From Eledone cirrhosa (lineage: Eukaryota), in assembly GCA_964016885.1 (NCBI GenBank), contig OZ024757.1:30628001-30692000 (forward strand): a stretch of DNA of 64,000 nucleotides. Reading direction: 5' to 3'. The position numbers were made by a program, and so were the translations under genes. The notes beneath the pieces were generated by a model. The model was not told where the DNA came from. It did no database searches and saw only the letters and a list, made by a program, of their open reading frames with translations. Shown in pieces: positions 17,821-47,743 of the stretch (positions within the stretch are counted from its first letter, which is position 1; every line of letters begins with the position of its first letter).

Positions 17821-20464
17821 ATGTTTTAGAAATAAATGAAAACAAAAAAAATTCGTCTGAGAGAAAGAGAAAAAGAAAGAATAAGAAGAGAGTTGTAGAA
17901 TAATGAAGAAAAAGATATAAACAGCTATAAAATACGAGAGAGAAAAGAATCAAAAAGATAGAATGAGAGAGGACAAAAGATGTGGCTATAGAATGAGAGG
18001 GAGTCAAAAGGATAGGGGATGGATAAAGAGTTGGAGTAATAAAAGAAGAGAGAGGGTGGACAAAGAGATAGAATAATAGAAGAGAATAAAATAAAAAAGA
18101 GGGCAAAAAATATAAAGTTAATAAAATAAAGAAAAAAAGTAAAAACAAATCGAGGGAAGCCGAAATGACAGAATAATAGAATGAGAGAGTAGGAGGATGA
18201 CAAATAGATAAAGTAAAATGAATGAGTGAGGAGGAGAACAAATAGGATATATTAATAGAACGAGAAGGGAGGGAGAGTTATTTCTGTAACAGGAAGTTGA
18301 GTAAGGGAGATTACTGTGTTAAACCTACGGTATCTTCCCTTTGTGTTGTTCTTGTTATTAAAAGAAAGAATCGTAGAATTTTTCAAGTTTGAACAAAGCA
18401 ATTGAGTTTAAGCAGTCGAAGCTTTGTGACACATTCTCACATGTTATAAATTTGACTGACAACTTTATACATATGTAAACAGCGATCTGTAAGCAAGTAT
18501 CTATACAAACATATAAAGATTCCCGCTCCGGGGAAACAGTATTGAGCCTCAAACTGTTACACCGAATTTTCGGGGAAGGGGTCTGAATTTAGAAATTTCA
18601 AATTGGCTAATTAAGGGATTCAGTAAGGGTCACATATTGGCAATTATTATCATTATGAGATATACATATTATCAAAGAAATAAAAACAACAATAATAATT
18701 GTTTAATTAATAACAAGGGCCGAAAGTCATTGAAGGATTTCAGGGAGTAAATCTGAGATATTAAGGGATATCGTTTTCATCCTATCCACCCTCCCCTGTA
18801 ATCAGTACACGATTTCAGGTGTAGTTTGGAATTAGTGTGCAATTATCGTTCTAACTACACAAATTTTCTCGGTTTGTTTCAATGTAATGAGGTAAACATT
18901 CTAGATGTAAATTTGTTTTAGCATAGTAAAAATTTATGATAATGGGTTTTATTACAATTGTATAAATTTACATAGAAGTATTCGAAATGTCTTATTATTG
19001 ATAAATGAAAATGTTTGTTTATTGCCTTCATCACAACAACGCCTCATAGATTTAATAGTGCGTCTTCTATAAGCACATCCATCTATTGAGGGGGAATAAT
19101 TTATAAACATAAAGACTTTGATCGCATTCGAATGAGAACATACACACACTAATATGCGTACATAAAGATACATACAAATATAAGCATACATAGATATACA
19201 CAAATATAAACACTCACACACACACATATACATACACAAGCACGAACTCGGTATTCAGACGAAACTAAGTGATATTGTGGCATTCGACAACGAGGCTAAA
19301 ACCAGAGACAAAAAAATCCTAATTCCCTCCCTTTGTTAAGGTGTCGTTAACGAAGGACCAAGTGCGAGAACGGATGTATTTGCACAAACCAAAGCATATT
19401 TATATTCTCCGTTGGTGACCGGAAACATCTAATTTCTAAATGTAATTCTTATCAACTCAGTTAACATAATCGGAGGATTTTGTATCCTATTTATATTTGA
19501 ATATGATTATCGACTCTATTTAGGTTATGTTATTAACACATCTACACCAACCTGCTAATTTCTCACGACTACTGTATGTCTCTTTAACAAATAGATTCGG
19601 AAACATCTTCTATATTCTCAGGTATGTACTGTTATGTACCCCAACTAAGATTTCTGATATTTTCGTTAATATTTATTTTATTCTATTAATGTGTGTTGCC
19701 AATTCAATCAGCAAAACCGATTTTGAGTCCCAAAAGAAATCATTTCACTTTTACGTGTTTCGAATGAGGTTTGTAGAAAAAATCTGCAGTTTACTTTGAA
19801 TTTAACCAGTTAAATTATTAACGTTGAAACTAAATAAAAACGGGCGGATCTTAAAATATACCCTTATGTAAACAATCTCAAAATACGAGGGGGAGATCAT
19901 CGTAATTCTGATACTATGCGAAAGAGGAGATTGAGATTTGTAGGCCATTGCAATCGTGCCTCAAAATGAAGTTGTGACTCCTTTAGTGATTTGGGAACCC
20001 AACATCTGCTAAAAGCAAAAGCGGTCGCAATCTCTCCTATGCTGATACCAATAGCCCTAGACACTAGTATTGTTGTTCGGGATCCAGGAAATGCAATGAG
20101 TGACAGACCTACGTGGAGATCTGTTACTGACGACGATGATGATGATTATGTAAACAATAACAAACGATTTATTTTCGAACATAATTTAACTTGCAGAAGT
20201 GAGGTGAATTAAGTTTACAGCAATCGGAAGAATTTTTATCCATTTATGTGACCAATTCCTTTTGAATAGACTTGAAAACTGCATATTCAAATTTATTACT
20301 GTGTATGTTAATGTGTATGAAGAAGCTGTTTTGTTGATCAAACAAGTGGAGCAGTCATCGTCGAAACCAACGGAGATCCATTCAATTTCATTCCACACGA
20401 AGCAAAATTTTTCTTAACAAAACTACGTTGATTTCTTCTTCCAGTTGATAGTTGACATGTAAAG

Positions 20465-20569
20465 ATGAGTGTCTCCCAGTTTAGTGAACCACAGGCAGGT
20501 GGTGACCTGGATCTCTACGATGATATTCTCCAGGAAGACTTTGATTGCCAGAAGGAATCTCTTGATGAG
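20465..20569 (+). CDS. CASP8AP2: FLASH/CASP8AP2-like copy A, coding exon 1 (LDLY motif)
   Basis: MSVSQFSEPQAGGDLDLYDDILQEDFDCQKESLDE, comparable to vertebrate FLASH LDLYEEIL; acceptor TTCCAG at 20444, donor GAG|GTAGGT, phase 0; same structure in copy B. Confidence 0.8.
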
Positions 20570-20619
20570 GTAGGTAAAACAATACACCCACTGCCCCAAG
20601 CTTGGAGGCTCATTAAGCC

Positions 20620-20858
20620 AGTGCTTATCCCAGTTAACTTAGCATTAAGCAACAAAGAGTATACTTCTCCTGGACAGGTCACCAGTTCATTGTACGGTTA
20701 ACTCCCAGCTACTGCTGGTACTCATTTTCAGCTGAGTATGCTGGAGCAACCTGAAGTGAAGTGTTTTGCGCAAAAGCACAATGCACCACCTAGGAATCGA
20801 AACCACAACATTATGATCATTAAGTCGACACTGTAACCACTAGGTTATACAGCTTCAC
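20620..20858 (-). mobile_element. tRNA-type SINE copy
   Basis: Reverse-strand B-box-like ggaatcgaaacc and taaccactagg head; similar to copies at 28250-28368, 28810-28960, 30550-30822, 44720-45045 and 55810-56090. Confidence 0.65.
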
Positions 20859-20939
20859 AAAGGTAAAACAATCATATAACAGTACAAACACTAATTTCGT
20901 TTGTAGATGTCTTAACAGTGTGTCTGAGAGAATATATTA

Positions 20940-21270
20940 CATCCATTTTACAGAGTGGACTGTGCTCTTTATTCTGGCACAAGTACTACCACCTTACAGG
21001 GTTGACTGTGCTTTTATTATGGCACTAGCATGATCACTTTACAGGGTTGACTGGGTGCTCTTTATTGTGGCATCAGCACTACCACTTTATAGGGTGGGCT
21101 GGGTGTATTTATCGTGGCATCAGCACTACCATTTTACAGGGTGAACTGGGTGTATTTATTGTGGGGCCAGTACTTTCATTTTACAAGGTGGATTGGGTGC
21201 TTTTATTGAGGCACCACAGCACTACCACCACCTTACAGGGTGGACTGCGTGCTTTTATTGTGGCACTACC
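20940..21270 (+). repeat. 48-bp minisatellite, about 7 degenerate units (intron 1 of FLASH A)
   Basis: Recurring accactttacagggtggactgggtgcttttattgtggcac unit, same family as 60063-60945. Confidence 0.85.
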
Positions 21271-21364
21271 ACTGCCTCTATATTCCTTGAAATCCCCAAG
21301 ATAGTTACAGATGAAATGTATTTGATCACAGGTCTGCTATGTCAAAGTTGACCTGGGGCTAAAT

Positions 21365-21470
21365 AATTGTTTCTACTTTAGGCACAAGGCCAGCAATTAT
21401 CCAGTGCATTACTGGTACTTTATTTTATCGACCCCGTAAGGATGAAAGGCAAAGTCAACCTCGGCGGGAT
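21365..21470 (-). mobile_element. SINE fragment, second family
   Basis: Reverse complement of cccgccgaggttgactttgcctttcatccttacggggtcgataaaataaagtaccag, seen at 29.9, 33.9, 34.1, 55.2 and 58.3 kb. Confidence 0.8.
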
Positions 21471-21665
21471 AACAGCCTGTGATCCCTTCTCACCACCCAG
21501 TCCTCTGACCACAAAATAATAACAGCCTGTTATCCCTTACTGCCACGCAGTCTCTATTACCAGTCCACATCATTACAATCTCCTCTTTCCTATATAGCCA
21601 TGTTTTTGATTCTCTGGCTACTTATCTAAACACTTTAATGAGAAATATATACTTTATTTCTTTAG

Positions 21666-21856
21666 TTACAACAGAAATACAAGGAAGCTATACAGAAGAT
21701 CGCTATTTTGGAAACTACTGTGAAAGAGCGTACATTGTCTCTTGAATCATTGGAGAAGAAAAACATATACTTACAGAAGAATATATCAATGTTGTACAAA
21801 ACTGCATGCACAGAAATCAAGAGAAAAAATGATATTATTCAGTCTTTAAGAGAGCA
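21666..21856 (+). CDS. CASP8AP2: FLASH-like copy A, coding exon 2 (coiled coil / Lsm11-binding segment)
   Basis: TTTAG acceptor, CA|GTAAGT donor, 191 nt; LQQKYKEAIQKIAILETTVKERTLSLESLEKKNIYLQKNISMLYKTACTEIKRKNDIIQSLREQ resembles vertebrate FLASH [23 protein letters not shown] (recalled sequence). Not in the ORF track. Confidence 0.85.
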
Positions 21857-21919
21857 GTAAGTTTTTGGTCTATTTATCTTATCATAAACATTTTTATAGA
21901 TGCAGGCATGGCTGTGTGT

Positions 21920-22112
21920 AGCATTTACATTACTCCATATTTACTATTGTATTTTCGTAGTAAAGGCTTTATCTCACATAATATCGAATGAGATTTTGAT
22001 ATTATTTATTTTGAGAACAATACGTTAACATCAGTATCAGTGTCCACTTTGAACAGAAAGAGGTGAGAGAATTCTGGCTGGATACAGCGAGTTTTAATGC
22101 TAAAGGGTTAAG
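21920..22112. mobile_element. TTAA-MITE copy in intron 2 of FLASH A
   Basis: tagcatttacattactc ... aatgctaaagggTTAA; left terminus eroded. Confidence 0.75.
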
Positions 22113-22192
22113 AAGTTTGGTTTGCAGCTACCTGGTCTGAAGTTGTATCCGACTTCATGACATCTTGTGATATGATTTGGTACTCAGTCTTT

Positions 22193-22257
<65 letters not shown>

Positions 22258-22765
22258 AATTATGGATGGATATCAGGAGGTAGATACAGTTAAAAAAGAT
22301 AGAGTATAGACATCTTTATTTTATATGGAAATAACTTATACAAGACTAGAACTGTTTCATTGATATGAAATCATCAAGAAAGGACTTTCCTGATGATTTC
22401 ATACAAAATTGTTTGTATAAAATTTTAGTTTGTGCTAATAATAAATATTTGCTTTACAGTTTTATAAATACTGTTAATATATTTATATAATACTTAATCT
22501 ACTTATCACTTTACATTTAATATTGCTATTGCAAGCAACGATATTTGTTTATGTCTCACATAAACGTTAGTTCAGCAGTTAGATGTATGAAGATTTGTAC
22601 CTTATTTTTAAAACAAGGCACTATTGGCATCAAGAAGGGCATCTGACAGTAGAATTCTGCCTCAAGCACTTGGGTCCAACCCATGCCAGCATTGCAGGTA
22701 TGCAAACCCTTTTTTATAAAATCATTTTCCTTATATATATATTTGATTTTTGTTTCTCTTTCCAG

Positions 22766-22871
22766 ATTAGACACCCATAAAAAAGAAAACTATGTGAAAA
22801 AATCGCAATCTGGATACTCTAAATGGAATGGTGATTCTCAGAGAAACATCAAATCCTCTCGAAATTATTGA
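22766..22871 (+). CDS. CASP8AP2: FLASH-like copy A, exon 3 start, ending in an early TGA (133-aa spliced product)
   Basis: TTTCCAG acceptor, phase 2 compatible with exon 2; LDTHKKENYVKKSQSGYSKWNGDSQRNIKSSRNY*; homologous to the start of copy B exon 3. Confidence 0.7.
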
Positions 22872-23466
22872 CGTAACCCTTATAAAAAAAAAGGACATCC
22901 CTTTCTCCCCCCCCCATCTTATTTTGACAATATTTATTCACCATTTCATTCTGCGTAAGCTTTTAGTCACTCAAGTATTAAACATAAAAAAAGTAATTTG
23001 CATCAACAAAATTGAAAGCTAACTCTTATTCTACTGCTACTAATGTGCTGGCTGCAAAGTTGATGCCTTCTGATTCACTATGATCTCCTATATTTGAAAA
23101 AAATCACAGGTTCTGTACAGACTGTCTAAGAATTTGTGACATCATTTGCTACAAAATCAAAATGAAGTCATGTCAGATATGAAACAGAAGAAGAAAATAT
23201 GATTGATAAAAGTTCATGATAAAGATTTTCTCTGTACAACATCTGTTCCCTGAGTGTACTGGTCTGGGAGAATCTGTTAGTACAAATATAACTGACCTGC
23301 TTGCACTCATGATCTTATAAAACTTATATAAGAAAGTAAATATTTTGATTCAAGAAACATTAAACAGGACACAAGAACAACAATCGCAGTGATCAAATAT
23401 TTCCAAAAATAAAAGTGAAAAGAAATATAGAAAGTATTCTGATGTTGAAACTAATAACTCAAGAGA

Positions 23467-24513
23467 GTGGATGTAGTTGAAGCAGTGAAGATGTCAACTC
23501 AACTGTCAGCAAAATCTGCAGGATCTCATGCAAACGGGACTAAACCTTCTCCAACTTCTGCTGTTGCTGCTGGTGTTGATAAATTTTCTCCCAGTGATAA
23601 ACATTGCAGTAAAATGTATGATCCAGTGTTAGCTTCCTCACTAGAAGTACCAACTAAATGTGAGAGAAATCTTTCCACACCTGTTGTTCCACAAACGTGT
23701 AAAACCTCAGTAGCATTGAATAGTCAGGAAGACATAGTTATTAACTGCTTTGGTAGATCTAATCCAGAAGATTCTCATTCTCCTATAATTATTCGTTGTT
23801 TTTCTAACAGTATGACACATTCAGAGCTAGCTGAATCAACAAGCAGCAAAATTTCTGATTATGGTGATTCTACACCAACAAAGGAAACAATTGTTCGTAA
23901 ACTGTTCTCACCAAGTAAGCCTGATTATGATTTATCGGTGGAAAATCAAATCCGAGATGATATGGGAGCAAAGAATCACAGTCTTGACTTTCTCAATGAA
24001 ATGAAGAAGAAATTATCGCAGGAAATTGCTGCTCATAACAGAAGACAACAAGATGAAGATTGTTCTTCAGATCTAACACAATTAAATGATATCTGTGAGA
24101 ATGATAAAGATACATATTGTAGTAATGATAGTGTGAGAGACGATGAGAATTTTCTGAAAACATATTCTCCTCATGCACAGACTGATTCAGCTACAAGTAC
24201 TCGGCAGTCTGAAGGTGATTGCGTAGACTTAGAAGAAGGGGAGATTGTAAGTGATGATGATGATGATGATGATGATGGTGATGAGGATGATGATAAGGAG
24301 GAGGAGGAGGAGGTGGTGGTGGAAGATGGTGAGAGAGAAGAAACTTCCAAGGAGGAATTTTCCGATAACATTAAACATGAAAGTAAACACACTTCAAAAC
24401 AAACTTCCAAAAGAAGGAAGATATCAGGGTGTAAGACATTGTCTAAAATTAACAATAAACAGAATGACAACTCTTCAGGACATGAAAACAAAAAACGAAG
24501 GGTTGACCGGTGA
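23467..24513 (+). pseudogene. CASP8AP2: Disconnected C-terminal reading frame of FLASH-like copy A
   Basis: Nearly identical to copy B 37850-38836, including DLEEGEIVSD and KKRRVDR*; separated from the N-terminus by a stop and about 600 bp of degenerate sequence. Could still be reached by unrecognised splicing. Confidence 0.6.
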
Positions 24514-24769
24514 GGACGGAGTGCTGAGCTAATGTTATTTTTTAACGATATATTATTTAAGTAAAACTGAAATTTATCTTCCTCTTCCTCCTGTTCATGA
24601 TATTGTATATGTCTGTTTATATTATTCACATGTCTTTAACAACAATATATTAAAATATACTTCAATATGTTCAGGTATGCATCATAATTATGAAAGTAAA
24701 AATTAATTTTGTTGCTGGACACGTAAAGCATGATAAAATATGATATATGTGTGTGTGTGTGTTTAAGTC

Positions 24770-25680
24770 GAGAGTTAGGAGCGGAGGAATGGTTTGTTAG
24801 AATAGTGATGACAATGTATGTGTGAGCGTATACAGTCGTTAAAGATGGAAAAAGGGGGGAACAGTGATGAGTTTGAGGTGAAAGTAGCGGTGCATCAAGG
24901 GTCAGTAATAAGCCCACTATTATTTGTAGTTGTGATGGAGGTACTACCCTGAAGCGTGAAGGATGGTTTACCGTGGGAGGTGGTATGCATAAATGACCTG
25001 GTATTAATATCAGTAAGTATGGATGGACCGAGGGAGAAGATGAATAGGTGAAAGGAATGTATGGAGGTATGAAGGTAAATATTGGAAACAACAGAAAGGT
25101 GGGGTGGCCGTGTACTAGAAGGGTGTTGGAATGAACTCCAGTAAATGTATGACATGCACTGGGTGGTTACATTGAAAATGCAGTGGTGTGAAGAGATTAT
25201 TAAATAATGTGGCAGCTACATTTAAGTGTAAAATGTGTAAGGAGGGAGCTACAGATTGAGACGATGTTGAACTGTATTTTGGTAATGGTGTAAAAACATT
25301 TTGTTGCGTTGGAGACATTGAATGGAGAAGATGGATCAGACTCTGTGACAGAATCTAGAGGGAGATGTGCGTGGAAGAAGTTCTGGGAACTGTGTGGTCT
25401 GCTAATGTGAAGGGGAGTATCTCTGAAACTGAAGAGAAAGGAGGATCAGACTCTGTGACAGAATGTAGAGGGAGATGTGCATGGAAGAAGTTCTGGGAAC
25501 TGTGTGATGTGCTAATGTGGAGGGGGAATGTGATCAGACTCCGTGACAGAATCTAGAAGATGTGCATGGAAGAAGTTCTGGGAACTGTGGTGTGCTAATG
25601 TGGAGGGGAGTGTCTCTGAAACTGAAGAGAATGGTGTATGCTGCATGTGTGAGAAGCACCATAATTTATGGGAGGAATTT
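24770..25680 (+). mobile_element. Degenerate RTE-like LINE ORF2 fragment
   Basis: VHQGSVISPLLFVVVME reverse-transcriptase motif near 24890-24940, Cys-rich segment, and triplicated CAWKKFWEL segment at 25330-25610. Confidence 0.8.
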
Positions 25681-25824
25681 CCCAATTAAAACTTGACCAT
25701 GTACAGACTGGCTTGACCAGTGGTAAGTTATGTCTATTGTCCCCGTTTTAATCACTATAATGTTAATAGATTTCCTATGATAGTGATGATATATTTAATG
25801 TTTGTTATATTTCCTAAATATAAG

Positions 25825-26240
25825 ATTGGCAGAATTGGTAGAGCATCAGATAATATGCCATTGTGGCATTTGATCTGGCTATTTACATTCTGAGTTCAAA
25901 TCCCACCATGGTCAACTTCGCCTTTCATTCTTCTCGGGTGTTTGATAAAATAAAAAGTACCAGTCACAGACCTGTCAACACTCCCTGTCCGATGGGGAAA
26001 TCTCCTACCCACTTTGAGGTGGGGTGAGAGATGTCTTCTCTTGTGAAAATGGGTATAGCTTTCATTATGTAAAATCTCACCCATCTTGCCTCATTTCTCC
26101 CCGTTTTGGAGCACTTTTTTTTCATAGTACTCCCCGTTTGTTTGGGTTTTTAGAGTTTGGCAGGTCTGATACATACAAGTACTGGGGGTTGAATTAATCA
26201 ACTTTGCCCTTCTTCCAAATTTGAAGGCCTTTGTGCCTGA
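25825..26240 (+). mobile_element. SINE interrupted by a 202-bp TIR element (25967-26168)
   Basis: SINE head gattggcagaattggtagagc, B-box gagttcaaatccc and core; insert bounded by cagacctgtcaac / gtttggcaggtctg; a second copy of the insert lies in reverse at about 50510-50670. Confidence 0.75.
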
Positions 26241-28249
26241 ATTAGACAGTAATATTTCCTAAATTTGTTGCTGGTGCAAAAACTATTCACACCCTGTTTA
26301 CTTACACTAGTCACCGTGCATGGCTTCTCACAGCAGAGATCATGAATCAATGTCTAACGAAACACAGCAATTATTTTGCTCATAATTGTTGATATGAAGA
26401 AATCAGAAATAAATGACATTGTTAATGATGAAAGACTGTCTTTTCTTTTGTTGTTGCGTTTATCTAGACATAAATTTTTACTAAAGAAATATACTATCTA
26501 CAAACAGTGTTAACCACACAATTTATTTCCCATAAAATTACACACACAAAACATTGGATGGGGTGGATTAAAATGTTTTTCTTTAATTTTTTTATTTTGC
26601 TTGCTTGTTTGTTTGTTTGTTTTTCATTTTCTGAAAATAAAAAAAAATTCTATATTTCAATTTACTTAACATAATGAGTGTAAAACGAACTCAGTTCCTA
26701 AGCTGAGCTGTACAAAGAGATGATGCACACAAAAATACCAAACAGCTTTGGATAACTCCCCAACACCACACCATCACCACCATATACATTCGCAAGCAGA
26801 CGATAATTATAAACTGTAGGGCAGAAGATGATGGTGCCCCCCCCTCCTCCTCCTAGTAACTCTCACCACCCTTCCACCTCACCTCACACGCTCTTTTCAG
26901 GCAATAACGTGCACTATCGTACGACAATTTCCATTCCCCGATCTATTTCTCTTCAAATGTTTTTATGTATACATATTACACTGTCTTGTGTTTAGAAGTT
27001 GTTATTTTCATGCATAAAAGTGGTTGTATTGCTTGTTTGTTTTTTTTTTGTTTTGTTTTTAGTTTGTTTCTTTTGTTGTTGTTCTTTTTTTACGCCCAAT
27101 AAAAAAATAAATTCCGTCGGAACGTATCTTATATCATAATATAAAAATAGGTTTCGAGTTGCGACAAGATTTTCAGGGACGCAATACTTTCGTAACGCGG
27201 GGAATTCCTCGTCTAGACTGTGATCTCATCCTACATACACGTACATACAGATATACATATACACACGCGTACATAAACACATATACAAGTATATATATAT
27301 GTACATAAGCATACATAAACACACATACAAGTATATATATAATCCTTATCGAGCCCTCTTCCGATTTTAATCTTCATAATTATTATTACTATATATATAT
27401 ATATATATACACACACATAGACACGTACATATACACAAACAAATAAGCATACGTATACACGGGTATTCAGACACGCATACAAATATTTGCACACGTGTAC
27501 ACACATATATGTATATGTGTGTACACGTGTGCAAATATTTCACACATAAATAGACACATGAAAATATAAGTATACACACGCACCCCCCATTCACCCAGGC
27601 AGATACGGTATTGAGTCGAAACTAAGCGATATCGTAACATTTCGACAACGAGGCTAAATTAAGCCAAAAACAAAACAGAAAAACCCGCGTAATTTCGAAG
27701 TCAAACCACAAAGGCCGGAATGGATTGTATTCATGATAGAATGTGTTTTTATATTTTTAAAATTTCATTCTAGACAATTCAATTAACATTATCGGATAGT
27801 TTATCTCTCTATCTTACTTGCAAGTTTTATCTTAACATTCCAATGTAACTACCCGTTAATTGTAAATATATTATTTGATATAAATTAAATATCAATTGAG
27901 TAGATTATCGCCACCACATCAACCTCGTCTCAAACCCTTAGTATATTTGAATACCAAATATATTTGGAAACAACCTATATTTTTCAGGTATGTATTATTG
28001 TCTCAACTAAGACTTCCGATCATGTTTTTTGTTTTAGTGTTTATATTACTGTATCAATTCACAAGTTCTGTTCGACTGTGTCAAACAGGATATGTACGTG
28101 TGTGTCCGAGTATGTCTGAAGCTTGATCTGTTGAAGGGGACCTCTTCGACAAAATCCCAAACCTCATTCGCTTGCCAAGTGAGGTGGGCCTCGTCAAATC
28201 AGACCAAGTCTTTCCATTGCTGCTACTATCCACCGGTCGCAACTCCTGG

Positions 28250-30822
28250 CAGAAGGAGTAACGTGAAATAAAGTGCTTTGCTCAAGGACACAACGCATCA
28301 ACCCGTCCGAGAATTGAACCTCACGATTGCGAATCCGACTCTCTAACCACTAAGCCACGCGCCTTCACAACCAGGGACAAATAGGGCAACAGTTATCTCT
28401 GTCTGTGTGGGGAGAAGAGTCATACCGAGGTTAGGGTCCCTGGAGTTAAAGTTTCAAGGTAAATGTGTTAACTGATAATCAGCAAACCGATATCGATTAT
28501 CGACAGAAACCCTTCCACTTTTACGCTTGACCATATTAACCCATGGCTGCCCCTGTGATTTCGGGCCCCATCTTTTGCACTTGGTCCCTGGGATACCTCT
28601 AGCCTTCAACTTAACCTCTATGCCAAGCTCCGAGGGGCCTCTAGTGATAAACCTAACCAGCCACTGCACAAGTCGAACCTTACTCATATCCCCAAGGGGA
28701 AGTCCTTTTTATTTTTCTTGCAATCGACAAATTCCCAGACATCATGAGCTTACAGAGTGGGGTGGAATTCGACAGATCAGACCCGAGAAACGATGTTTCC
28801 ATTATTCTTTCCAATTGCTGATACAAACTAGTCGCAACTCCAGGTAGGAGCAACGTTAAATAAAGTATCTTGCTCAAGGACATAATGCATCGCTCGACCT
28901 GAAATCGAAATCAACTTAACGATTGCGAATCCAACTTTCTAACCACTAAACCACGCGTTCAGGTCCTCATATGCTACTAATGCGGTTTGCCAGCTAAAAC
29001 ATGTCAACCTCAAAACAAACCTGATGAACTAGGAAGTTAAACCAGACACGCTGTTGTGAAGGGAGTTTACAGCAATGCTAAGTCTGATTAAAGGAGTTTG
29101 TTTTCCACTCTTGTGACCAATGTCTTTGGGACAGAGTTGAACTAACAAGGGAACCACTGTACGATCGTCAACGTGCCAGAAAAAGCAGCCAAATCCCTGT
29201 AAATAACCACATTTACACTTCAGCACGGCAACCCACTTATATTTTCCCGCCACATTCCATTTATTTACCCCCATTAACAAAGAGGTCAGCAACTTCTCCA
29301 CATACATACACACACACACACACATTTACTGACACATACATTGTAGTGATATCGGGTCTTTCTGATCCCTAATATTTGATGGGTTGGTTGGATGGTCTGA
29401 TGTCAAAAGTCACGTTTAACATCGGATAGAGAAAGAATTAATCATGGACTGAAGTAGGAACACACACACATAAGCAATCATGTACTGTGACACTCACACA
29501 CCTACACAAACATATACATATACAAGCATCTACACGTACATACATAAAAAATTATTGTCTGCTTTTGGCAACAGTGAATGCTTTTTAAGGGGTTCGTACA
29601 AAGTTTACATTTCCACTTTACAATTTCTTTCGTTGTTTTTTCATTAGCAATATTTTATGAATGTGAATGTGATTATACCGAAATCGTTGGTATTTTGTCG
29701 TCTGGTTTCATTCAAATATTGATTTTGTTCAAAGTATTTTTAACCGGTAGAGCAACCAAATAGTGACTTAGTGGCGTATCTTTTAAAAGGGGAAGTAATT
29801 CGGGAACACCTTTTTCTATAAGCTTTCCAGATTTACCTCCCTTGCTCTATTAAATTGATTTAATTTAGTTAAGAATTTATTCAACTGGTTTTCTCTTACA
29901 CTTCTAAAGTTGGTCTGAGTTCAAATCCCGCCGAGGTTAACTTTGCCTTTCATCCTTACGGGGTCGATAAAATAAAGTACCAGTAATGCACTGGATAATT
30001 TGCTGGCCTTGTGCCAAAAGTAGAAACAATTATCACCTAGTACATTGATAAAGATATCACTCGGCTAATCGCTGAAATGTCAGTAGTTCCGATTAAGTAC
30101 TAACTTGTTCTGTGACGACCCGTCCAACCCATGCTAGCTGGAAAAACCGACGTTAAATGATATGGCTTTACTCAGAATAGAATATCTAATGAAAAAGTCA
30201 ATAAAATTTTGCATTAAACATGTATATATTCACAAAATGGGTGTCGAATTGTGTCCTTGAGCAAGACGCTTTATTTCATGTTGCTCCAGGCAACTTAGCT
30301 GGCAAAAAAATGAGTTGTACCTGTAATTCAAGGGGCCAACTTTGTGTCACACTGATTCTCCCTTACGACTGCATTAAGGGTACTCGAGTCTGTGGAATGC
30401 TCAACTATTTATACGTTAATTTCAACAACAGGCAGTTCCGTTGTTTGAATCAACTGGTGCACTCATCGTAGGAAACGACGGAGATCCAAGAGTATTAACG
30501 TCAACACACGCGACAGACAAACGTAGAGATCTGTTTAAAGTCTGTCTCGAGCCCAGAGCTCCACCAAGCTGATGCTTATCCCGGTATTCGTGGCATGAAG
30601 CGACTGAGTACAAGACTCGTTGGACAGGACGCCAGTCCATCGCAGGGTTAAACCTCCAGCTATTGCAGGGAAAAGCGGACGTAAAGTGATGATGATATAC
30701 TGAATCAACGTGAAATGAAGTGTTTTGCTCAAGAACACAACACACAAGCCAGTCTAGGAATCGAACCCACGACATTATGATCATAAGTCCAACACCCTTA
30801 CCACTAGGCCACACACCTCCAC
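28250..30822. mobile_element. Cluster of SINE copies (28250-28368, 28810-28960, 29905-30030, 30240-30480, 30550-30822) upstream of FLASH B
   Basis: Shared ttgctcaaggacacaac / gaatcgaaccc / taaccactaggccac blocks and the second-family core; absent from the paralogous region of copy A. Confidence 0.7.
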
Positions 30823-31161
30823 AAATCTGTTTTGTTGAGTATATTTCGGCAGAGGTTGTATGATGATGTAAACAATAAACGATTTTATTTATTTATTTTT
30901 TTTATTATATATTTTATTTCAAAATAGTGAAATATATCCGTAGGGTAAAATTACTTAAAAATGATAAAGAATTTAATATTTAGTCAAACAAACAGAAAAA
31001 GAAAGCAGTATTGGAAAGGACTATAAATGCCATAAATGAGAGAGAAAGAGCAAGGACTATTAGGTAACAGAAAAAAGAAAGAGGGAAGAAGGTGACAGGC
31101 TGTACATCTAGGTCAGAGTGGTGTTTCAGCTGCGCCCTACGGACAAACTGACCGAGGCAGT

Positions 31162-31922
31162 TTAACCCTTTAGCATTTATATTACTCTATATATACTATT
31201 GTATTTTTGTGGTAAAGGCTTTATCTCACATAATATTGGATCTATGAGATTTTGATATTAATCTTGAGAACAATACCTTCCCATAAGTATGAGTAGCCAG
31301 TTATAGCCGATTCGAACAGAAAGAAGTGAGAATTCTTGCTGGACATGGCTGGTTTAAATGCTAAAGGGTTAACGGACAATGGCCATTGACACCTACCCCA
31401 CCTCATAGGGCTCCTTCCTTGGACAAGCTGCTTTTTTAACATAATTTAACCCTTTAAGCATTTAAACTGGCCATATATCCGGCCAGCATTCTCTCACTTC
31501 CTTCTGTTAAAACCAGCTGTAACGGGCCACTCATACTGATGTTAAGGTATTGTTCTCAAAATAAATAATATCAAAATCTCATAGATTCAATATTATGTGA
31601 AGTAAAACCATTACCATGAAAATACAATAATAAATATAGAGTAATGTAAATGCTACAGGGTTTACATGCTGACGTGAGGTGCATTAAGTTTATAGCAATT
31701 TATATCAGTTTTGAAGAAATTTTGTCCATTTAACCCTTTAGTATTTACATTACTCTATATATACTATTATATTTTCACCTATCTCACATAATATCGAATC
31801 TATGAGATTTTGATATATATTTTGATAACAATACCGTAACATCAGTATGAGTGGCGTGTTAAAGCCAGTTTGAACAGAAAGAGGTGAGAGAATTCTGGCC
31901 GGTTTAAATACTAAAGGGTTAA
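31162..31922. mobile_element. Three piggyBac-type MITEs of about 190-210 bp in alternating orientation (31166-31368, 31450-31660, 31734-31918)
   Basis: TTAA-CCCTTTAGCATTTA ... TAAATGCTAAAGGG-TTAA: TTAA duplication and CCC/GGG termini; empty sites are visible in the paralogous copy A region at 20180-20255. Confidence 0.85.
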
Positions 31923-32130
31923 GTGGCAAATGCCTTTTGGACAGACTTAAACTCTGCATATTCAAATTTGTTAATGTGTATGAAGAGGCTGTTCTGTTAA
32001 TCAAACAACTGCAACAGTCATCATTAAAACCAATGGAGATCCATTACATTTCATTGCACACAAAGCTAAATTATTCTTAACAACACCACATTGATTTCTT
32101 CTTCTTCCAGTTGATAGTTGACATGTAAAG

Positions 32131-32235
32131 ATGAGTGTCTCTCAGTTTAGTGAACCACAGACAAGTGGTGACCTAGATCTCTATGATGATATTCTCCAGG
32201 AAGACTTGGTTTGTCAGAAGGAATCTCTTGATGAG
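32131..32235 (+). CDS. CASP8AP2: FLASH/CASP8AP2-like copy B, coding exon 1 (LDLY motif)
   Basis: MSVSQFSEPQTSGDLDLYDDILQEDLVCQKESLDE; acceptor at 32110, donor GAG|GTAGGT; 105 coding nt as in copy A. Confidence 0.85.
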
Positions 32236-32451
32236 GTAGGTAAAACAATACATTTCTTAAACATATTTTTACTTTTTTGTTCCCCCCAAACTCTGATACT
32301 CATCAGACCAGTTCTTATCCCAGTTTCCTCACCTTTAAATGCACAGTGCAAGTGATAGTTTGGTTCAGAAGTTTGCTTCATAAATACATGTTTCTTTTTT
32401 AAGCTTGTTTATACTGAGTAATACCTTGAGCAAATATCTTTTACTAGATCT

Positions 32452-32840
32452 TTAACCCTTTGGCATTTGAATTACTCTATATATATACTATTGTAGATAG
32501 AAACACAAATTTCAAACTACTAAATTTCACTGAAAAGACTTCAGTCAACTTAAGGATCTGGTAAAAGATATTTGCTCAAGGTATTGCTTAGTATGAGCAA
32601 ACTTTAAAAAAAAACATGTATTTATGATTCAAACAGTCACTTGCCCTCTCTGTCATTTAAACTGGCCAGAATTCTCTCAGCTCTTTCTGTTCAAACCAGC
32701 TGTAACTGGCCACTCCTACTGATATTAAGGTATTGTTCTCAAAATAAATAATATCAAACTCTCATAGATTACATTTTATGTAAGATAAAGCCTTTACCAT
32801 GAAAATACAATATAGAGTAATGTGAATGTTAAAGGGTTAA
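32452..32840. mobile_element. TTAA-MITE pieces in intron 1 of FLASH B
   Basis: ttaaccctttggcatttg at 32452 and a reverse copy ending aaagggTTAA at 32840. Confidence 0.65.
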
Positions 32841-32905
32841 CTAACATATTTGTTGTTCGGAAACTTTAAATACTCTAACAAAAAATATAATATTCTTTGT
32901 TTCAG

Positions 32906-33096
32906 TTGCAACAGCAATACAAGGAAGCTATCCAGAAGATTGCTACTTTGGAAAATACTCTGAAAGACCACACTGTGACTATGGATACACTGGAGAAGAA
33001 AAACACTTACTTACAAAAGAATATATGGAGTCTCTACAAATCTGCACATGCAGAAATAGAAAGACAAAATGCTGATATTCACACTTTAAGAGAACA
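32906..33096 (+). CDS. CASP8AP2: FLASH-like copy B, coding exon 2 (coiled coil)
   Basis: TTTCAG acceptor, CA|GTAAGT donor, 191 nt; LQQQYKEAIQKIATLENTLKDHTVTMDTLEKKNTYLQKNIWSLYKSAHAEIERQNADIHTLREQ. Confidence 0.85.
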
Positions 33097-33174
33097 GTAA
33101 GTTTCTGGTTCAATTGTCTTTTTATAAATTCTTTTTATAGTCTTTAGTAATTTTTCTATTGATATCTGTTTCGT

Positions 33175-33660
33175 GCCACATCAAAAAGCGCCCAGTCCAC
33201 TCTGTAAAGTGGTTGTGTTTGTGAAACAACAAAAAGCACCCAGTTCATTCTGTAAATTGGTTGTGTTGTGGATATGACAAAAAGCACCCAGTCCACAGTG
33301 TAAAGTGGTCATGTAGGTGTCATGACAAAAAGCACCCAGTCCACATTGTAAAGTGGTCATGTAGGTGTCATGACAAAAAGCACCTAGTCCACACTGGAAA
33401 GTGGTCATGTAGGTGTCACGACAAAAAGCACCCAGTCAACTCTGTAAAGTGGTTGTGTTGGTGACACTTCAAAAAGCGCCTGGTTCACACTATAGTGGTT
33501 GTGTTGGTGAAACGACAAAGAGCACCCTGTCCATTCTGTAAAGTGGTTCTGTTGGGGATATGACAAAAAACACTCAGTCCACTCTGTAAAGTGGTTGTGT
33601 AGGTGTCAATAAAAAAGCACCTAGTCTACTCTGTAAATGTAGTTGGCATTATGATGGGCA
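33175..33660 (-). repeat. 48-bp minisatellite, about 10 units, reverse orientation
   Basis: aaaaagcacccagtccacactgtaaagtggtcatgtaggtgtcatgac units. Confidence 0.9.
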
Positions 33661-33834
33661 TCCAGCTGTAGAAACCAAGCCCAAATCAGTTCTGTATGAG
33701 TAAGACACAGTCATCTGATCTGGCTTGTATGATAATGGGACAATTCATGTAACTCATGCTAGCATGGAAAAATGGACGTTAGACGATCATGGTGATGATG
33801 ATGTTCTGCATAATCGGAAACCATTATTTCTTTG

Positions 33835-34235
33835 AAGAGGCGGTGGATTGGCAGTATCGGTGGAGGGTCGGACGCCATGCTTTCCAGCATAGTTACGTCC
33901 CTTTACGATCTGAGTTCAAATCCCGCCGAGGTTGACTTTGCCTGTCATCCTTACGGGGTCAATAAAATAAAGTACCAGTAATGTACTGGGTAATTGTTGG
34001 CCTTGTGCCTAAAGTAGAAACAATTATTTCTTTGAGGAGGGCGATGGATTGGCAGTATCGGTAGAGGGTCGGACGCCATGCTTTGCAGCAAAGAGTTACG
34101 GCCCTTTATGGTCTGAGTTCAAATCCCGCCAGAGTTAACTTTGCCTTTCATCCTTATGGGGTCGATAAAATAAAATACCAGTAATGCACTGGGATAATTG
34201 CTGGCCTTGTGCCAAAAATAGAAATAATTATTTCT
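33835..34235 (+). mobile_element. Two head-to-tail SINE copies of about 200 bp
   Basis: Each has ggattggcagtatcggtagaggg (A-box-like), tgagttcaaatcccgcc (B-box-like) and the family core. Confidence 0.85.
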
Positions 34236-34872
34236 TTGAAGTAAACAACATGATGGAATTGGATCTCTCAACACTAAACTATCTTATCATCATCACCGTT
34301 TTATGTCCATTCTTCCACGCTAGCATGGTTTAGACGGGTTGTCCTGTTGTGGGCAGTGTCCAGTCGGCTGACCTTGTCTTGCTTATACGGGAACTGATTC
34401 TGGTGTCCACTTTACAGTGTGGGCTGGGTGCTTTTTGCTGTCGCACCGCCACGACCACTTTGCAGTGGGAGGGGGTGGGAGCATATTGTCTATATGCTTT
34501 AGCTTCGGCTTGTACCTGTGGGAAGTCGGGTTTTCTGTATTACTGCGTGACGCCAGAGGTCACGGTCATGTGTCATTGCCCTTGAGAGGTGCAATTGGGT
34601 AAAGTCGGGTTTTATCGTCTCATCTTATATCCATATAAATCAAGTTAACAGGGTGTAGAACATATTTTTTATGTATTTCTTTGCTATATATGTGGTTGGT
34701 GTTAGGAAGGGCATCCAGTTGTGAAAAACCCAGCCAAAATACAGTTCTGTTTGAGCAAGGTACGGGGCGGTCAGTTGGCCAGATTTGTCTCATAATGTGA
34801 TCGACCCATGAAAAAAATAGTTAAAAAGTGATGATGATGATATATTTATTTGATATTTGTTCCTCTTTCTAG

Positions 34873-37800
34873 ATTAGACTCATGTAATAAAGAAACTTTC
34901 ATGAAGAAACCACAGTTAGAATATTCTAAATGGAATGGTGACCCACAAAATCCACAGTCAGAATATTCTAAACACAATGGTGACCCACAAAATCCACAGT
35001 TAGAATATTCTAAATGGAATGGTGACCCTCAAAATCCACTGTCAGAATATTCTAAATGGAATGGTGACCCTCAAAATCCACAATTGGAATATTCTAAATG
35101 GCATGGTGACCCTCAAAAACCACAGATGGAATATTCTAAATGGAATGGTGACTCTCAAAAACCACAGTTGGAATATTCTAAACACAATGGTGAACCTCAA
35201 AATCCAGAATTGGAATATTCTAAACGGAATGGTGACCCTCAAAATCCACAATTGGAATATTCTAAATGGAATGGTGACTCTCAAAATCCACAATTGGAAT
35301 ATTTTAAATATCATGGTGATTCTCAAAAACCACAGTCTGAACATTTTAAACACAATAGTGACCCTCAAAAACCACAGTTGGAATATTCTAAACACAATGG
35401 TGACCCTCAAAATCCACAATTGGAATATTCTAAACGGAATGGTGACCCTCAAAAACCACAGTTGGAATATTCTAAACACAATGGTGACCCTGAAAATCCA
35501 CAATTGGAATATTCGAAATGGAACGCTGACCCTCAAAAACCACAGTTGGAATATTCTAAATGGAATGATGACCTTCAAAATTCACAGTTGGAACATTCTA
35601 AACACAATGGTGACCCTCAAAAACCACAGTTGGAATATTCTAAACACAATGGTGACCCTCAAAAACCACAGTTGGAATATTCTAAACACAATGGTGACCC
35701 TCAAAAACCACAGTTGGAATATTCTAAACACAGTGGTAACCCTCAAAAACCACAGTTGGAATATTCTAAACACAATGGTGACCCTCAAAAACCACAGATG
35801 GAATATTCTAAACACAATGGTAACCCTCAAAAACCACAGTTGGAATATTCTAAATACAATGGTAACCCTCAAAAACCACAGTTGGAATATTCTAAACACA
35901 ATGGTGACCCTAAAAAACCACAGATGGAATATTCTAAACACAGTGGTAACCCTCAAAAACCACAGTTGGAATATTCTAAACACAATGGTGACCCTCAAAA
36001 ACCACCGATGGAATATTCTAAACACAATGGTAACCCTCAAAAACCACAGTTGGAATATTCTAAACACAATGGTAACCCTCAAAAACCACAGTTGGAATAT
36101 TCTAAACACAATGGTGACCCTCAAAAACCACAGTTGGAATATTCTAAATGGAATGATGACCTTCAAAATTCACAGTTGGAATATTCTAAACACAATGGTG
36201 ACCCTAAAAAACCACAGATGGAATATTCTAAATGGAATGGTGACCCTCAAAAACCACAGATGGAATATTCTAAATGGAATGGTGACCCTCAAAAACCACA
36301 GATGGAATATTCTAAATGGAATGGTGACCCTCAAAAACCACAGTTGGAATATTCTAAACACAATGGTGACCCTCAAAAACCACAGATGGAATATTCTAAA
36401 CACAATGGTAACCCTCAAAAACCACAGTTGGAATATTCTAAACACAATGGTAACCCTCAAAAACCACAGTTGGAATATTCTAAACACAATGGTGACCCTC
36501 AAAAACCACAGTTGGAATATTCTAAATGGAATGATGACCTTCAAAATTCACAGTTGGAATATTCTAAACACAATGGTGACCCTAAAAAACCACAGATGGA
36601 ATATTCTAAATGGAATGGTGACCCTCAAAAACCACAGATGGAATATTCTAAATGGAATGGTGACCCTCAAAAACCACAGATGGAATATTCTAAATGGAAT
36701 GGTGACCCTCAAAAACCACAGTTGGAATATTCTAAACACAATGGTGACCCTCAAAAACCACAGATGGAATATTCTAAACGGAATGGTGACCCTCAAAAAC
36801 CACAGTTGGAACATTTTAAACGGAATAGTGATTCTCACAAATCACAGGCGGTACATTCTAAATCAAATGGTGAGTCTCGAAAACCACGGTTGGAATATTC
36901 TAAATGGAATGACCCTCAAAAACCACGGTTGGAATATTCTAAACGGAATGGTGACCCTCAAAAACCACAGTCGGAATATTCTAAATGGAATGACCCTCAA
37001 AAACCACATATGGAATATTCTAAACGGAATGGTGACCCTCAAAAACCACAGTCCGAATATTCTAAATGGAATGACCCTCAAAAACCACGGTTGGAATATT
37101 CTAAACGGAATGGTGACCCTCAAAAACCACAGTCCGAATATTCTAAATCAAATGTTGATATACAAAAACCACAGTTAAAATATTCTAAACGGAACAGTGA
37201 CTCTCGAAAACCACAGTTGGAACATTTTAAACGCAATGGTGAGTCTCGAAAACCGCAGTCGGAATATTATAACCGGAACAGTGACTCTAAAAGGCCACAT
37301 TCAGAATATTCTAAATGGAACGGTGACTCTCAGAGAAATATCAAACCTCATCAAAGAGATTCCAGGCGAAATGAAAGAAAAGATTCTAAAGAAAACAAAA
37401 GGAAAAGTTCCAAATATTGTGATATCGAAAATGCAAAATATTCTGATAAATCCAGATCTAGATATTCTAGCTCAAGGGAGCAGAGATATGGAGAAGAAAG
37501 ATATGAGAGAAAACTTTCATGTCATCGAGATTTGCAAAATTCTGAAGCAAAAAGAAACAGATCTTTAGAAACAAAAGCAAGACATTTCACAAAGAAGAGT
37601 AATTCTTCTAGTACAAATGTAGAAAATTCCTCAAATGAACACAGGAAGTTAGATACAAAACAAAATGGTCGCCAAAAGCCATCTTCATCCTCACAAAAAT
37701 CATATGTGAGTTATGTGCAAACAAAATGTCGTAGTGCTCCACTGAGAGAGAAGCAAAGTGTACATAATGATTGCTATGAGATTGGTAATACAACAAGACA

Positions 37801-38836
37801 TCATTCTAAATTAATTGATTGTCAGCAGTCTGTTATTGAAATATTGAAAATGTCAACTCAACTGTCAGCAAAATCTGCAGGATCTCATGCAAACGGGACT
37901 AAACCTTCTCCAACTTCTGCTGTTGCTGCTGGTGTTGATAAATTTTCTCCCAGTGATAAACATTGCAGTAAAATGTATGATCCAGTGTTAGCTTCCTCAC
38001 TAGAAGTACCAACTAAATGTGAGAGAAATCTTTCCTCACCTGTTGTTCCACAAACATGTAAAACCTCAGTATCATTGAATAGTCAGGAAGACATAGTTAT
38101 TAACTGCTTTGGTAGATCTAATCCAGAAGATTCTCATTCTCCTATAATTATTCGTTGTTTTTCTAACAGTATGACAAATTCAGAGCTAGCTGAATCACCG
38201 AGCAGCAAAATTTCTGATTATGGTGATTCTACACCAACAAAGGAAACAATTGTTCGTAAACTGTTCTCACCAAGTAAGCCTGATTATGATTTATCGGTGG
38301 AAAATCAAATCCTAGATGACATTGGAGCAAAGAATCACAGTCTTGACTTTCTCAATGAAATGAAGAAGAAATTATCGCAGGAAATTGCTGCTCATAACAG
38401 AAGACAACAAGATGAAGATTGTTCTTCAGATCTAACACAATTAAATGATATCTGTGAGAATGATAAAGATACATATTGTAGTAATGATAGTGTGAGAGAC
38501 GATGAGAATTTTCTGAAAACATATTCTCCTCATGCACAGACTGATTCAGCTACAAGTACTCGGCAGTCTCAAGGTGATTGCGTAGACTTAGAAGAAGGGG
38601 AGATTGTAAGTGATGATGATGAAAAGGAGGAGGAGGTGGTGGTGGAAGATGGTGAGAGAGAAGAAACTTCCAAGGGGGAATTCTCCGATAACATTAAACA
38701 TGAAAGTAAACACACTTCAAAACAAACTTCCAAAAGAAGGAAGATATCAGGGTGTAAGACATTGTCTAAAATTAACAATAAACAGAATGACAACTCTTCA
38801 GGACATAAAAACAAAAAACGAAGGGTTGACCGGTGA
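34873..38836 (+). CDS. CASP8AP2: FLASH-like copy B, giant exon 3 (tandem 14-aa repeat, basic Ser/Lys/Arg region, DLEEGEIVSD motif, acidic tract, KKRR tail); spliced product about 1419 aa
   Basis: TTTCTAG acceptor at 34872, in frame with exon 2; 3964 nt open. The end is either TGA at 38834-38836 or a CG|GTGAGG donor at 38833. Confidence 0.8.
34907..37333 (+). repeat. Coding minisatellite: 58 units (55 x 42 bp + 3 x 39 bp), consensus KPQLEYSK(H/W/R)NGDPQ
   Basis: Unit aaaccacagttggaatattctaaacacaatggtgaccctcaa; span 2427 bp = 55x42 + 3x39; no frameshift or stop. Confidence 0.95.
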
Positions 38837-39064
38837 GGATGGAGTGCTGAGCTAATGTTATTTTTTAACGATATATTATTTAAGTAAAACTGAAATTTAT
38901 CTTCCTCTTCCTCCTGTTCATGATATTGTATATGTCTGTTTATATTATTCCCATGTCTTTAATAAGCACATATCAAAATATAACACACAAGCACATATAT
39001 ATATTTGTGCGTTTATATATGTACATATATTTGTATGTATATATGTATGTGTACATTTCTTCTT

Positions 39065-43548: not shown

Positions 43549-44013
43549 TATTATGTGGGATACTATGGCTGATTTGAAAAGAAAGAAAGAAAGGAGTAAG
43601 AGAATTCTGGCTGGATACGGCCGGTTTAAATGCTAAAGGGTTAAAGCAAGAAAGTCTGATTATTAACTACTTAAATGTATCAAAGGTTAATAGAAAATAT
43701 TTAGAGAGATTAGCAACAAATACACAAGGTATAGTTACTTTTCCACAAAATTATGGCTTACTACAACATATTTGACTTTGTCTGAATTGTGGGGAGGATA
43801 TGAAACTCACTGAAGACCTATTTACAATTTACTATTGTATTTTTGCAGTAAAGACTTTACCTCACATAATATCGAATCTATGAGATCTTGATATCATTTA
43901 TTTTGAGAACAATACCATAACATTAGTGTGAATGGCGAGTTAGGGCTGGTTTGAACAGAAAGAGGTGAGAGAATTCTGGTGGGATATGGCTGGTTTAAAT
44001 GCTAAAGGGTTAA
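43549..44013. mobile_element. Two partial TTAA-MITE copies
   Basis: Both end in ggtttaaatgctaaagggTTAA (43644, 44013). Confidence 0.7.
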
Positions 44014-45260
44014 GTCTTTAGAATATAAATTCAAAATAGGGAGCATGCAAGACAATGGAAAAAACCCCAATATATATATTATAGAAATGAGATGATAGGG
44101 ACTGGGGTCCCTATCATTCCACTGCAAAGTGGTCATGGAGGTGCCAACGGCAAAAAAGCACCCAGCACTCACTGTAAATGAGGTTGGTGTTAGGAAGGGC
44201 ATCCAGCTGTAGAAATCAAGCCAGAATCAGTTCCCGTCCCACCCTTGCAAGCAGGGAAAAGCAGATGTAAAAATGATGAAAAAAAAAAAAATATATATCA
44301 TCATCATCATCATCATGATCACTGTTTTACGTCAATTCTTCCATGCTAGCATGGGTTAGACAGGTTGTCCTGTTGTGGGCAATGTCAGGTCGGGTGACCT
44401 TGTCTTTCTCAGATGGGAACTGATACTGGCTTGATTTCTACAGCTTGATGCCCTTCCTAACACCAACCCCATTTACAGTGTGGGCTGGGTGCTTTTTTGT
44501 CGTGACACCTCCACGACCACTTTGCAGCGGGAGGGGGTGGGGGCATATTGTCTATATGCTTCATATATATATATATCATCATTTAATGTCTATTTTCGCT
44601 GGACAAGTTGTTACAGATTTGTCAGTACTCAAGCGGAACCTTTGACCTACAAGTGGGCTGTGGGACGAGATATACGATCTTTTTCTCTAGTTTTGTTACA
44701 TAGGTGTGTCTATATGAAATGAGGGCACTCCGTCAGTTACGACGATGAGTGTTTCAATTGATCCGACCAGCTGAACAGCCTGCTAGTGAAATTAACATGC
44801 AAGTGGCTAAGCATTTTACAGACATGCATACTCTTACCATACTTCTCAGGAAGATTCAGTGTAACACTGAACTTGATAAGGCTAACCCTTTGAATTGCAA
44901 GTACGACTCATTTTTGCCAGCTGAGTGGACTGGAGCAACGTGAAATAAAGTGTCTTGCTCAAGGACACAACGCACCGCCGGGAATCGAACTCATGTCCTT
45001 ACGGTTGTGAACTGAATACCTTAACTACAAAGCCACACACCTTCACAGTGACAGACATATATATCACATGTTTAAATATACACATACATGCACACATAAT
45101 ATCAACACTAATACACACACACTTCACTTTGTGTTCCAAAATCGTTACCAAGACTACTCAGTGTTGTTTTGTTTACTCTCTTTATTTTCGTTTTTTTTTA
45201 GTTGGACTACTTTTTATTTTTTGTAGTTATCCTTTGTGATCCTGTCTATATTTTTGTACT

Positions 45261-47625: not shown

Positions 47626-47691
47626 TGTGTGTGTATATGTATATATATATATATATGTGTATATGTATATATATATATATATGTGTATATG

Positions 47692-47743
<52 letters not shown>

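Follow-up and report, generated by a model that had tools for sequence, protein, structure and literature searches.

A tandem pair of FLASH-like genes in the octopod Eledone cirrhosa, encoding proteins of 133 and 1419 residues

FLASH (CASP8AP2), a factor in histone pre-mRNA processing, has been studied as one huge protein in which an N-terminal processing module is tied to targeting and ARS2-binding parts. In the cited passages of PMC5636114, the LDLY motif (human residues 55-58) binds the cleavage complex, residues 100-139 bind Lsm11, and the FLASH-Lsm11 complex is 2:1. The SANT domain is the part of FLASH that targets the histone locus body; it binds NPAT, according to the excerpted text of PMC7432317. 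The FARB sequence DELEEGEIRSDSE is described in extracts of two further sources (PMC5923425; bioRxiv 10.1101/2022.01.19.476877) as an ARS2-binding peptide. According to the portion of PMC4896052 cited here, residues 1-178 of fly FLASH have full activity in vitro, and viability is rescued by a FLASH truncated at its C-terminus. Here we describe two adjacent FLASH genes in a 64,000-nt stretch of the Eledone cirrhosa genome (the window; GCA_964016885.1, contig OZ024757.1, positions 30,628,001-30,692,000, forward strand). The short copy, A, encodes 133 amino acids (aa) and the long copy, B, 1419 aa; all feature coordinates are window positions. The tandem pair is confirmed, a genuine and conserved variation on a known factor. 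A division of labour between A and B is likely.

A preliminary description of the window had reported two neighbouring genes with equal exon lengths and phases. This was borne out: all junctions are GT-AG, with phases 0 and 2, and lead to products of 133 and 1419 aa. The N-termini share 72/99 identical residues, a likeness not due to chance. Non-coding sequence upstream is also homologous (19249-19690 in A, 27606-28058 in B) and has a splice donor common to both copies; thus the duplicated unit begins about 1.2 kb before the start first proposed. The dN/dS ratio between the two N-termini, suggested earlier as a check for neutral evolution of copy A, is 0.30 (bootstrap 0.18-0.52), a sign of purifying selection that is pairwise and not assignable to one copy. 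When the same genome was searched with the DNA of exon 2, with a short homologue and with the C-terminal frame, scoring only the best candidates, no FLASH copy beyond A and B came up. An ATG-TAA start-stop element lies just 5' of both start codons (20457-20462 in A, 32123-32128 in B). A dispersed 47-48-nt minisatellite family (20943-21273, 33182-33645, 49202-49614, 60012-60808) has members within the introns of A and of B, oppositely oriented, and at other sites of the window. An Rfam scan of the window gave no match.

The assignment of the N-termini to FLASH is upheld by homology to the human N-terminal domain and by a profile search. The 149-aa Octopus short protein (P0001) matches the human domain (PDB 6AOZ) at E=1.4e-8 over 85 ungapped residues, the best of 4 matches, and the alignment is gap-free from LDLY to the end of the coil. 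Exon 2 of copy A itself matches the FLASH N-terminal domain at E=0.0065, and a profile built from outgroups only gives the spliced N-termini of the window 81 and 72 bits. The profile search returned 340 proteins at E<=0.001 (150 listed). LDLY occupies residues 15-18 in A and B, with a constant offset of +40 to human 55-58 and L118. The AlphaFold model of P0001, computed as a monomer, has a helix at 19-120 (mean pLDDT 82.7). Foldseek with this single-helix model gave 0 matches, Pfam on the window exons of A and B gave only sub-threshold coiled-coil matches, and an Atlas search with P0001 led to a cluster of C8AP2 fragments at 0.92 and to unnamed clusters of 100-133 aa.

Further towards the C-terminus, an EEGEI motif is present in 56/69 long homologues, compared to 2.2 in shuffles. 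A FARB/EEGEI-type motif is found in B and in ORF2, a second frame behind the stop codon of copy A, and is absent from the 133-aa protein. Judged by its letters, the LEEGEIVSD of these C-terminal halves matches FARB (DELEEGEIRSDSE) and is a candidate ARS2-binding motif. The C-terminal Myb/SANT family PF21227, counted by Pfam, occurs in 5/16 scanned non-octopod matches and is absent from 11/16, some of which are possibly fragments; neither copy A, copy B nor any of 5 octopod records matches it. SANT is missing from the end of several other long homologues too, so its lack is not special to this pair. The sole PF21227-like exon in the genome (L011:1462-1638; G000:C7:87884381-87884491) lies on another contig and is sub-threshold (E=0.10); it may be part of GON4L/YARP or a detached FLASH end.

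The two copies differ at conserved positions of the coiled coil. Sixteen columns are conserved at >=70% in the 125 anchored of 148 homologues (23/148 were not anchorable) in an ungapped alignment; anchoring was ungapped since many rows carry an earlier LDIY-type motif. Short copies keep 15, 15 and 16 of the 16, and long copies 12/16 each, a score shared by 3/125 outgroups. On this comparison the putative Lsm11-binding segment (human 100-137) of copy A keeps 15/16 conserved columns. That of copy B keeps 12/16, with the equivalents of human S116, T121, K129 and D130 altered and that of L118 retained. Octopus B alters the equivalents of S116, E125, R128 and D130; E125, R128 and K129 are 99-100% conserved in the homologue set. 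The hydrophobic core (L50, L64, N68, L71, I75, L78, A82, I86, I93, L96) is retained in A and B. The preliminary description had overlooked that it is the long copies that lost conserved residues.

Copy A is transcribed and spliced. Contigs of four sequencing runs from one study, of a kind not on record, were compared over 20300-34950; runs X1, X2 and X4 are from one sample and X3 from a second. A 2085-nt contig of X3 (record 18) joins 21856 to 22766 and extends to 24242 with zero differing letters. In it, 394 nt precede the exon-2 piece, beyond what exon 1 can supply. Further X3 contigs lie over the last exon of copy A (24333-25502, 25560-26051, 26092-27012). X3 is read as RNA because this contig is exactly spliced and the genome searches showed no intronless copy. 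We read these contigs, each an assembly and not a single molecule, as spliced mRNA of copy A with a last exon of about 4.3 kb and an unedited stop codon. At the stop (22869-22871) the contigs of 4/4 runs show no alternative letter. A-to-I recoding of the stop was rejected, since X3 has no other letter there and more stops follow in all frames; readthrough or frameshifting that would join the first frame to ORF2 was rejected on the stops in all frames between them. An A>G difference at 22773 in X2 and X4 contigs, absent from X1 and X3, is likely a heterozygous T102A in copy A.

The short form also exists outside this genome. The closest relatives of copy A are a 149-aa protein of Octopus vulgaris and O. 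sinensis and a 140-aa Argonauta protein (2 matches among 25 candidates). The TGA of copy A aligns with an Arg of the Octopus short protein, and the frame is alignable for about 12 codons further. The stops vary by lineage (133, 140, 149 aa), so the tail looks unconstrained. Copy A and the Octopus short form are identical at 78/99 residues, copy B and the O. sinensis long form at 59/99. With a spliced contig and a cross-species identity above that of B, copy A does not behave as a pseudogene. This arrangement predates the species, since three Octopus species have long forms and both Octopus and Argonauta have short ones.

The large size of copy B had been taken as a scaffold feature, and this part of the earlier reading is not supported. 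Without its 42-nt x 58 repeat, copy B would encode 624 aa, like the Octopus long forms (613-627 aa in three Octopus species), so the 1419-aa size reflects a local expansion, probably in a tolerant disordered region. The repeat unit is single in copy A and in Octopus and expanded in B; a B-type repeat is absent from 4/4 Octopus long-form records (557-627 aa), and B lacks the SANT/Myb NPAT-binding domain. Octopus long forms also align to B in the part that is disrupted in A (49.5% over 545 columns). The region upstream of copy B has an X3 contig (27719-27911), and the X3 contig of copy A runs unbroken at the block common to A and B. Among the matches listed, no X3 contig lies on the coding exons of copy B; contig depth cannot rank genes, and we draw no conclusion on B expression.

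The preliminary description placed both genes correctly but overlooked that exon 3 of copy A continues into ORF2. Positions 23477-24659 of A align with 37836-38982 of B with 26 mismatches in 1147 aligned nt, 15 of them in the 328 aligned codons, and ORF2 is identical to B at 318/328 residues. The dS value is 0.40-0.52 for the N-terminal exons and 0.024 for ORF2, so that the block appears recently homogenised with B by gene conversion. On the aligned letters, recent conversion of a tract of about 23491-24659 is the most likely history. ORF2 is covered by X3 records 18 and 19. A GAT/GAG trinucleotide run (24252-24311) encodes a long acidic tract in ORF2 that is absent from B; the Octopus ORF2-type records also have a long acidic tract, and their long forms do not. 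A complex prediction of a P0001 12-105 dimer with P0009 200-270 scored 0.03, and an Atlas search with P0009 gave nothing usable. Among the 148 homologues, the conserved C-terminal block has no match outside octopods.

ORF2-type records of 413 and 418 aa exist in Octopus and correspond to ORF2 extended upstream by about 75 residues. Those of O. sinensis and O. bimaculoides are identical at 404/413 residues, and the long forms of these two species, over the same columns, at 356/398 (Fisher P=7e-7). Within Octopus, A2 (the ORF2 product) and B are only 70-75% identical, so conversion fails to explain the high identity between species. A frame that follows a stop codon thus seems to be under constraint, at either the protein or the RNA level. 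The accessions of the ORF2-type records adjoin those of the short protein in O. sinensis (isoforms X1/X2) and O. vulgaris, or of the long protein in O. bimaculoides. From this adjacency and from the window, we infer that the 413-418-aa frames lie behind the short frame in Octopus too.

Taken together, we hold it somewhat better than even that copy A supplies processing and that copy B is accessory. A tandem duplication would have produced two FLASH genes. The short copy A would then likely provide histone pre-mRNA processing, and the 133-aa protein is plausible as a working processing factor from its conserved residues. Copy B would have kept a full frame with changed coiled-coil positions and probably no longer processes efficiently; with LDLY, the dimer core and the ARS2-binding-type motif, it may be an accessory or tissue-restricted partner. 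The former C-terminal half of A would persist behind the stop as an open frame refreshed by conversion with B. ORF2 is probably untranslated on the main mRNA, since 11 ATGs precede it.

The genome contains the surrounding pathway. An SLBP domain scores over cut-off and an H4 gene is followed by a histone stem-loop, so histone pre-mRNA processing is present in the host. Many histone stem-loop matches (L019:1440-1700 and many C18/C28 sites) are arranged as inverted pairs with a spacing of 90 nt. One such pair was inspected: it has no histone frame nearby and is a long inverted repeat, each arm of which contains the stem-loop; it may be a mobile element.

Several points weigh against assigning processing to A. 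Copy B retains the residues mutated to block Lsm11 binding (human L118 = L78, with Y79 common to A and B), so it may still bind, and the positions lost in window B are not those lost in the Octopus long forms. The outgroups were gathered with a profile made from 3 short sequences and 1 long one, a mix biased towards short-like residues. The constraint behind the pairwise dN/dS may lie on the N-terminus of B. The A and B clades cannot be told apart in the N-terminal tree, and the C-terminal tree joins A and B of the window, as gene conversion would give; the orthology of the long copies across octopods is itself presumed. ORF2 is conserved across Octopus above what an untranslated remnant would show. 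The best hit of a genome search for U7 snRNA, at 29.7 bits, is below cut-off. Finally, protein searches found neither a short O. bimaculoides protein nor a long Argonauta protein.

An unlikely alternative, though the best of those considered, is that locus A is a split FLASH gene, with a 133-aa processing module and a separate acidic protein of 340-418 aa carrying the ARS2-binding-type motif, B being a spare, faster-evolving copy. The second protein would arise via an internal start site, alternative splicing or unusual initiation. The excess identity of the ORF2-type records fits this, as do their in-frame length differences and the label isoform X1 of the 413-418-aa records, whose accessions stand beside the 149-aa isoform X2 (the two are adjacent in O. 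vulgaris too). The near-identical tract begins at the ATG at 23491, in-frame acceptor candidates exist at 23595, 23811 and 23916, and at the 5 A2/B differences in unambiguous columns where an Octopus residue exactly matches one copy, the derived residue is in B at 3 and in A2 at 1 or 2 (too few to test). However, 11 ATGs and stops in all frames separate the two frames, and the one RNA-like contig is unspliced across both. In this genome conversion alone accounts for the open frame, whose dN/dS (A2 vs B) is 0.55 with an interval of 0.20-2.5. A neutral frame at 89% protein identity stayed stop-free in 21% of 400 simulated runs, and RNA-level constraint could yield equal protein identity. Moreover, the motif reads LEKGGIAS in O. 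sinensis, the O. vulgaris record ends before it, and the placement of the Octopus records behind the short frame rests on accession adjacency. In its general form this would make octopod FLASH modular, with a stand-alone U7 subunit of 133-149 aa, a separate ARS2-binding-type protein and a converting full-length paralogue with an altered Lsm11 surface. We regard that arrangement as similarly doubtful. It would imply that histone mRNA is processed with no tether directing FLASH to the histone locus body, and if ORF2 is translated, an animal gene whose two halves come separately from one locus.

Less probable still is the model first proposed, an obligate FLASH of two components, with A and B joined as a coiled-coil heterodimer, A offering the Lsm11 surface and B a large scaffold. 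FLASH does bind Lsm11 as a dimer (cited passages of PMC5636114), hydrophobic core positions are retained in both copies, and the C-terminal extension with the ARS2-type motif is in the chain of B and not of A. However, B has no SANT/Myb domain, the repeat that gives it its size is absent in Octopus, and B has Q at the equivalent of human K129, the partner of D130 in the dimer interface. It is quite improbable that B is an ordinary full-length FLASH and A a transcribed truncated duplicate, decaying or a minor competitor. FLASH is normally long (60/148 matches are >=1000 aa), and A has a premature stop at a position that varies between lineages, followed by a decayed spacer. Yet between species A is better conserved than B (78 vs 59 of 99); it also retains more family residues, is spliced and is found in three genera-level lineages. 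That the pair or the 3' block of A is an assembly artefact is largely refuted and has next to no probability: the block is 98% identical between copies and the repeat number of B is open to mis-assembly, but a contig (22347-23520) spans the 23477 boundary in the unspliced runs X1, X2 and X4, as does the X3 spliced contig, B-type letters stand at 24211, 24484 and 24517 in X4, so that both copies exist in short-read data, the N-terminal exons differ at dS 0.4-0.5, and both types occur in other species.

Features of the FLASH pair, in window positions. A2, frame behind the stop of copy A.
Feature	Position	Strand	Remarks
Copy A upstream non-coding exon/promoter region	19249..19621	+	Ends at CAG/GTATGT donor; probable extent; homologous to B 27606-27987
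Copy A coding exon 1 (105 nt)	20465..20569	+	Codons 1-35; LDLY at residues 15-18 (human 55-58)
Copy A exon 2 (191 nt)	21666..21856	+	Coiled coil including segment matching human Lsm11-binding region (100-137); joined to 22766 in X3
Copy A exon 3, coding part	22766..22871	+	One YSKWNGDSQ unit; TGA stop; protein 133 aa
Copy A spacer	22872..23476	+	605 nt; stops in 3/3 frames; 11 ATGs; single-copy in genome search; unalignable to B
ORF2 of copy A (A2)	23491..24513	+	340-codon open frame; C-terminal half of FLASH
Most conserved block of C-terminal half (NHSL..LNEMKKKLSQEIAAHNRR) in ORF2	23974..24063	+	24/25 identical to Octopus
LEEGEI(VSD) motif in ORF2	24229..24246	+	FARB/ARS2-binding type; motif definition from excerpt of PMC5923425
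Rest of copy A last exon, long 3' untranslated region	24514..27111	+	AATAAA at 27098 and 27106, candidate poly(A) signals
Copy B upstream non-coding exon/promoter region	27606..27987	+	Probable extent; X3 contig at 27719-27911
Copy B coding exon 1	32131..32235	+	LDLY intact
Copy B exon 2	32906..33096	+	Coiled coil; S76W, T81S, K89Q, D90N at family-conserved positions
Copy B exon 3	34873..38836	+	3964 nt open; no Pfam family over cut-off
Copy B 42-nt coding minisatellite	34907..37332	+	58 copies; 14-aa unit, type EYSK(W/H)NGDPQKPQL
LEEGEI(VSD) motif in copy B	38588..38605	+	Residue 1338

Elsewhere in the window, two convergent single-frame genes (4106-5050, plus strand; 10887-11888, minus strand) have three RRM domains each and are possibly a local duplicate pair, of use as synteny markers; we take them to resemble ELAV/Hu/Sex-lethal-type RNA-binding proteins. 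Broken frames at 40989-45000, 47009-47746 and 56687-56989 resemble LINE-type retroelement remains, with a weak, sub-threshold endonuclease match (E=0.0096).

A literature search on CASP8AP2 in octopus found nothing, most subscription journals being outside its coverage, and the matches listed for FLASH and U7 made no mention of cephalopods. For a natural short FLASH the only finding was the engineered miniFLASH, in the excerpted part of PMC12305476. A natural FLASH limited to the N-terminal module and retained among octopod lineages, beside a long paralogue altered at positions that are invariant elsewhere, provides a comparison for which coiled-coil surface residues hold Lsm11; the heterotrimer was not solved in the structure paper of 2017. 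The same comparison of A and B bears on the need for histone-locus-body tethering in efficient 3' end formation. The repeat expansion itself is ordinary, and the giant size incidental.

The pair resembles human FLASH (PDB 6ANO, 6AOZ) in LDLY, the 85-residue ungapped coiled-coil match, the L118, N114-I115 and T121-A122 positions, and a downstream EEGEI-type FARB motif. Unlike human FLASH, the octopod has two tandem genes, one ending after 133 aa, the long form has about 620 aa once its repeat is left out, and neither copy has the C-terminal SANT/Myb NPAT-binding domain. Human FLASH also has a natural short splice form with both ends. Drosophila FLASH-mini and FLASH 1-733 (PMC4896052) and human GFP-miniFLASH, 1-200 joined to 1751-1982 (PMC12305476), indicate in the cited passages that the N-terminal module suffices in vitro and the middle is dispensable. 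All of these are constructs, and the mini forms, as described there, retain the C-terminus that targets the histone locus body, whereas copy A exists naturally and consists of the N-terminal module alone. Other short proteins of the FLASH type may exist: 21 matches below 250 aa have the motif and the coil, and the Atlas has clusters of 100-133 aa, though these may be fragments. Invertebrate-type long FLASH without SANT (e.g. P0012, P0042, P0074, P0104, P0157) is much longer than the octopod pair and ends in a basic tail 150-250 aa past EEGEI, as B does (82 aa). The closest counterparts are the Octopus and Argonauta records, which comprise the same three products: short (P0001, P0002), long (P0003, P0004, P0006) and C-terminal half (P0005, P0008, P0009). 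They lack the repeat expansion and are mostly annotated as uncharacterised, CWC22-like, SRRM5-like or PFC0760c, and one Octopus long record is named CASP8-associated protein 2 by UniRef.

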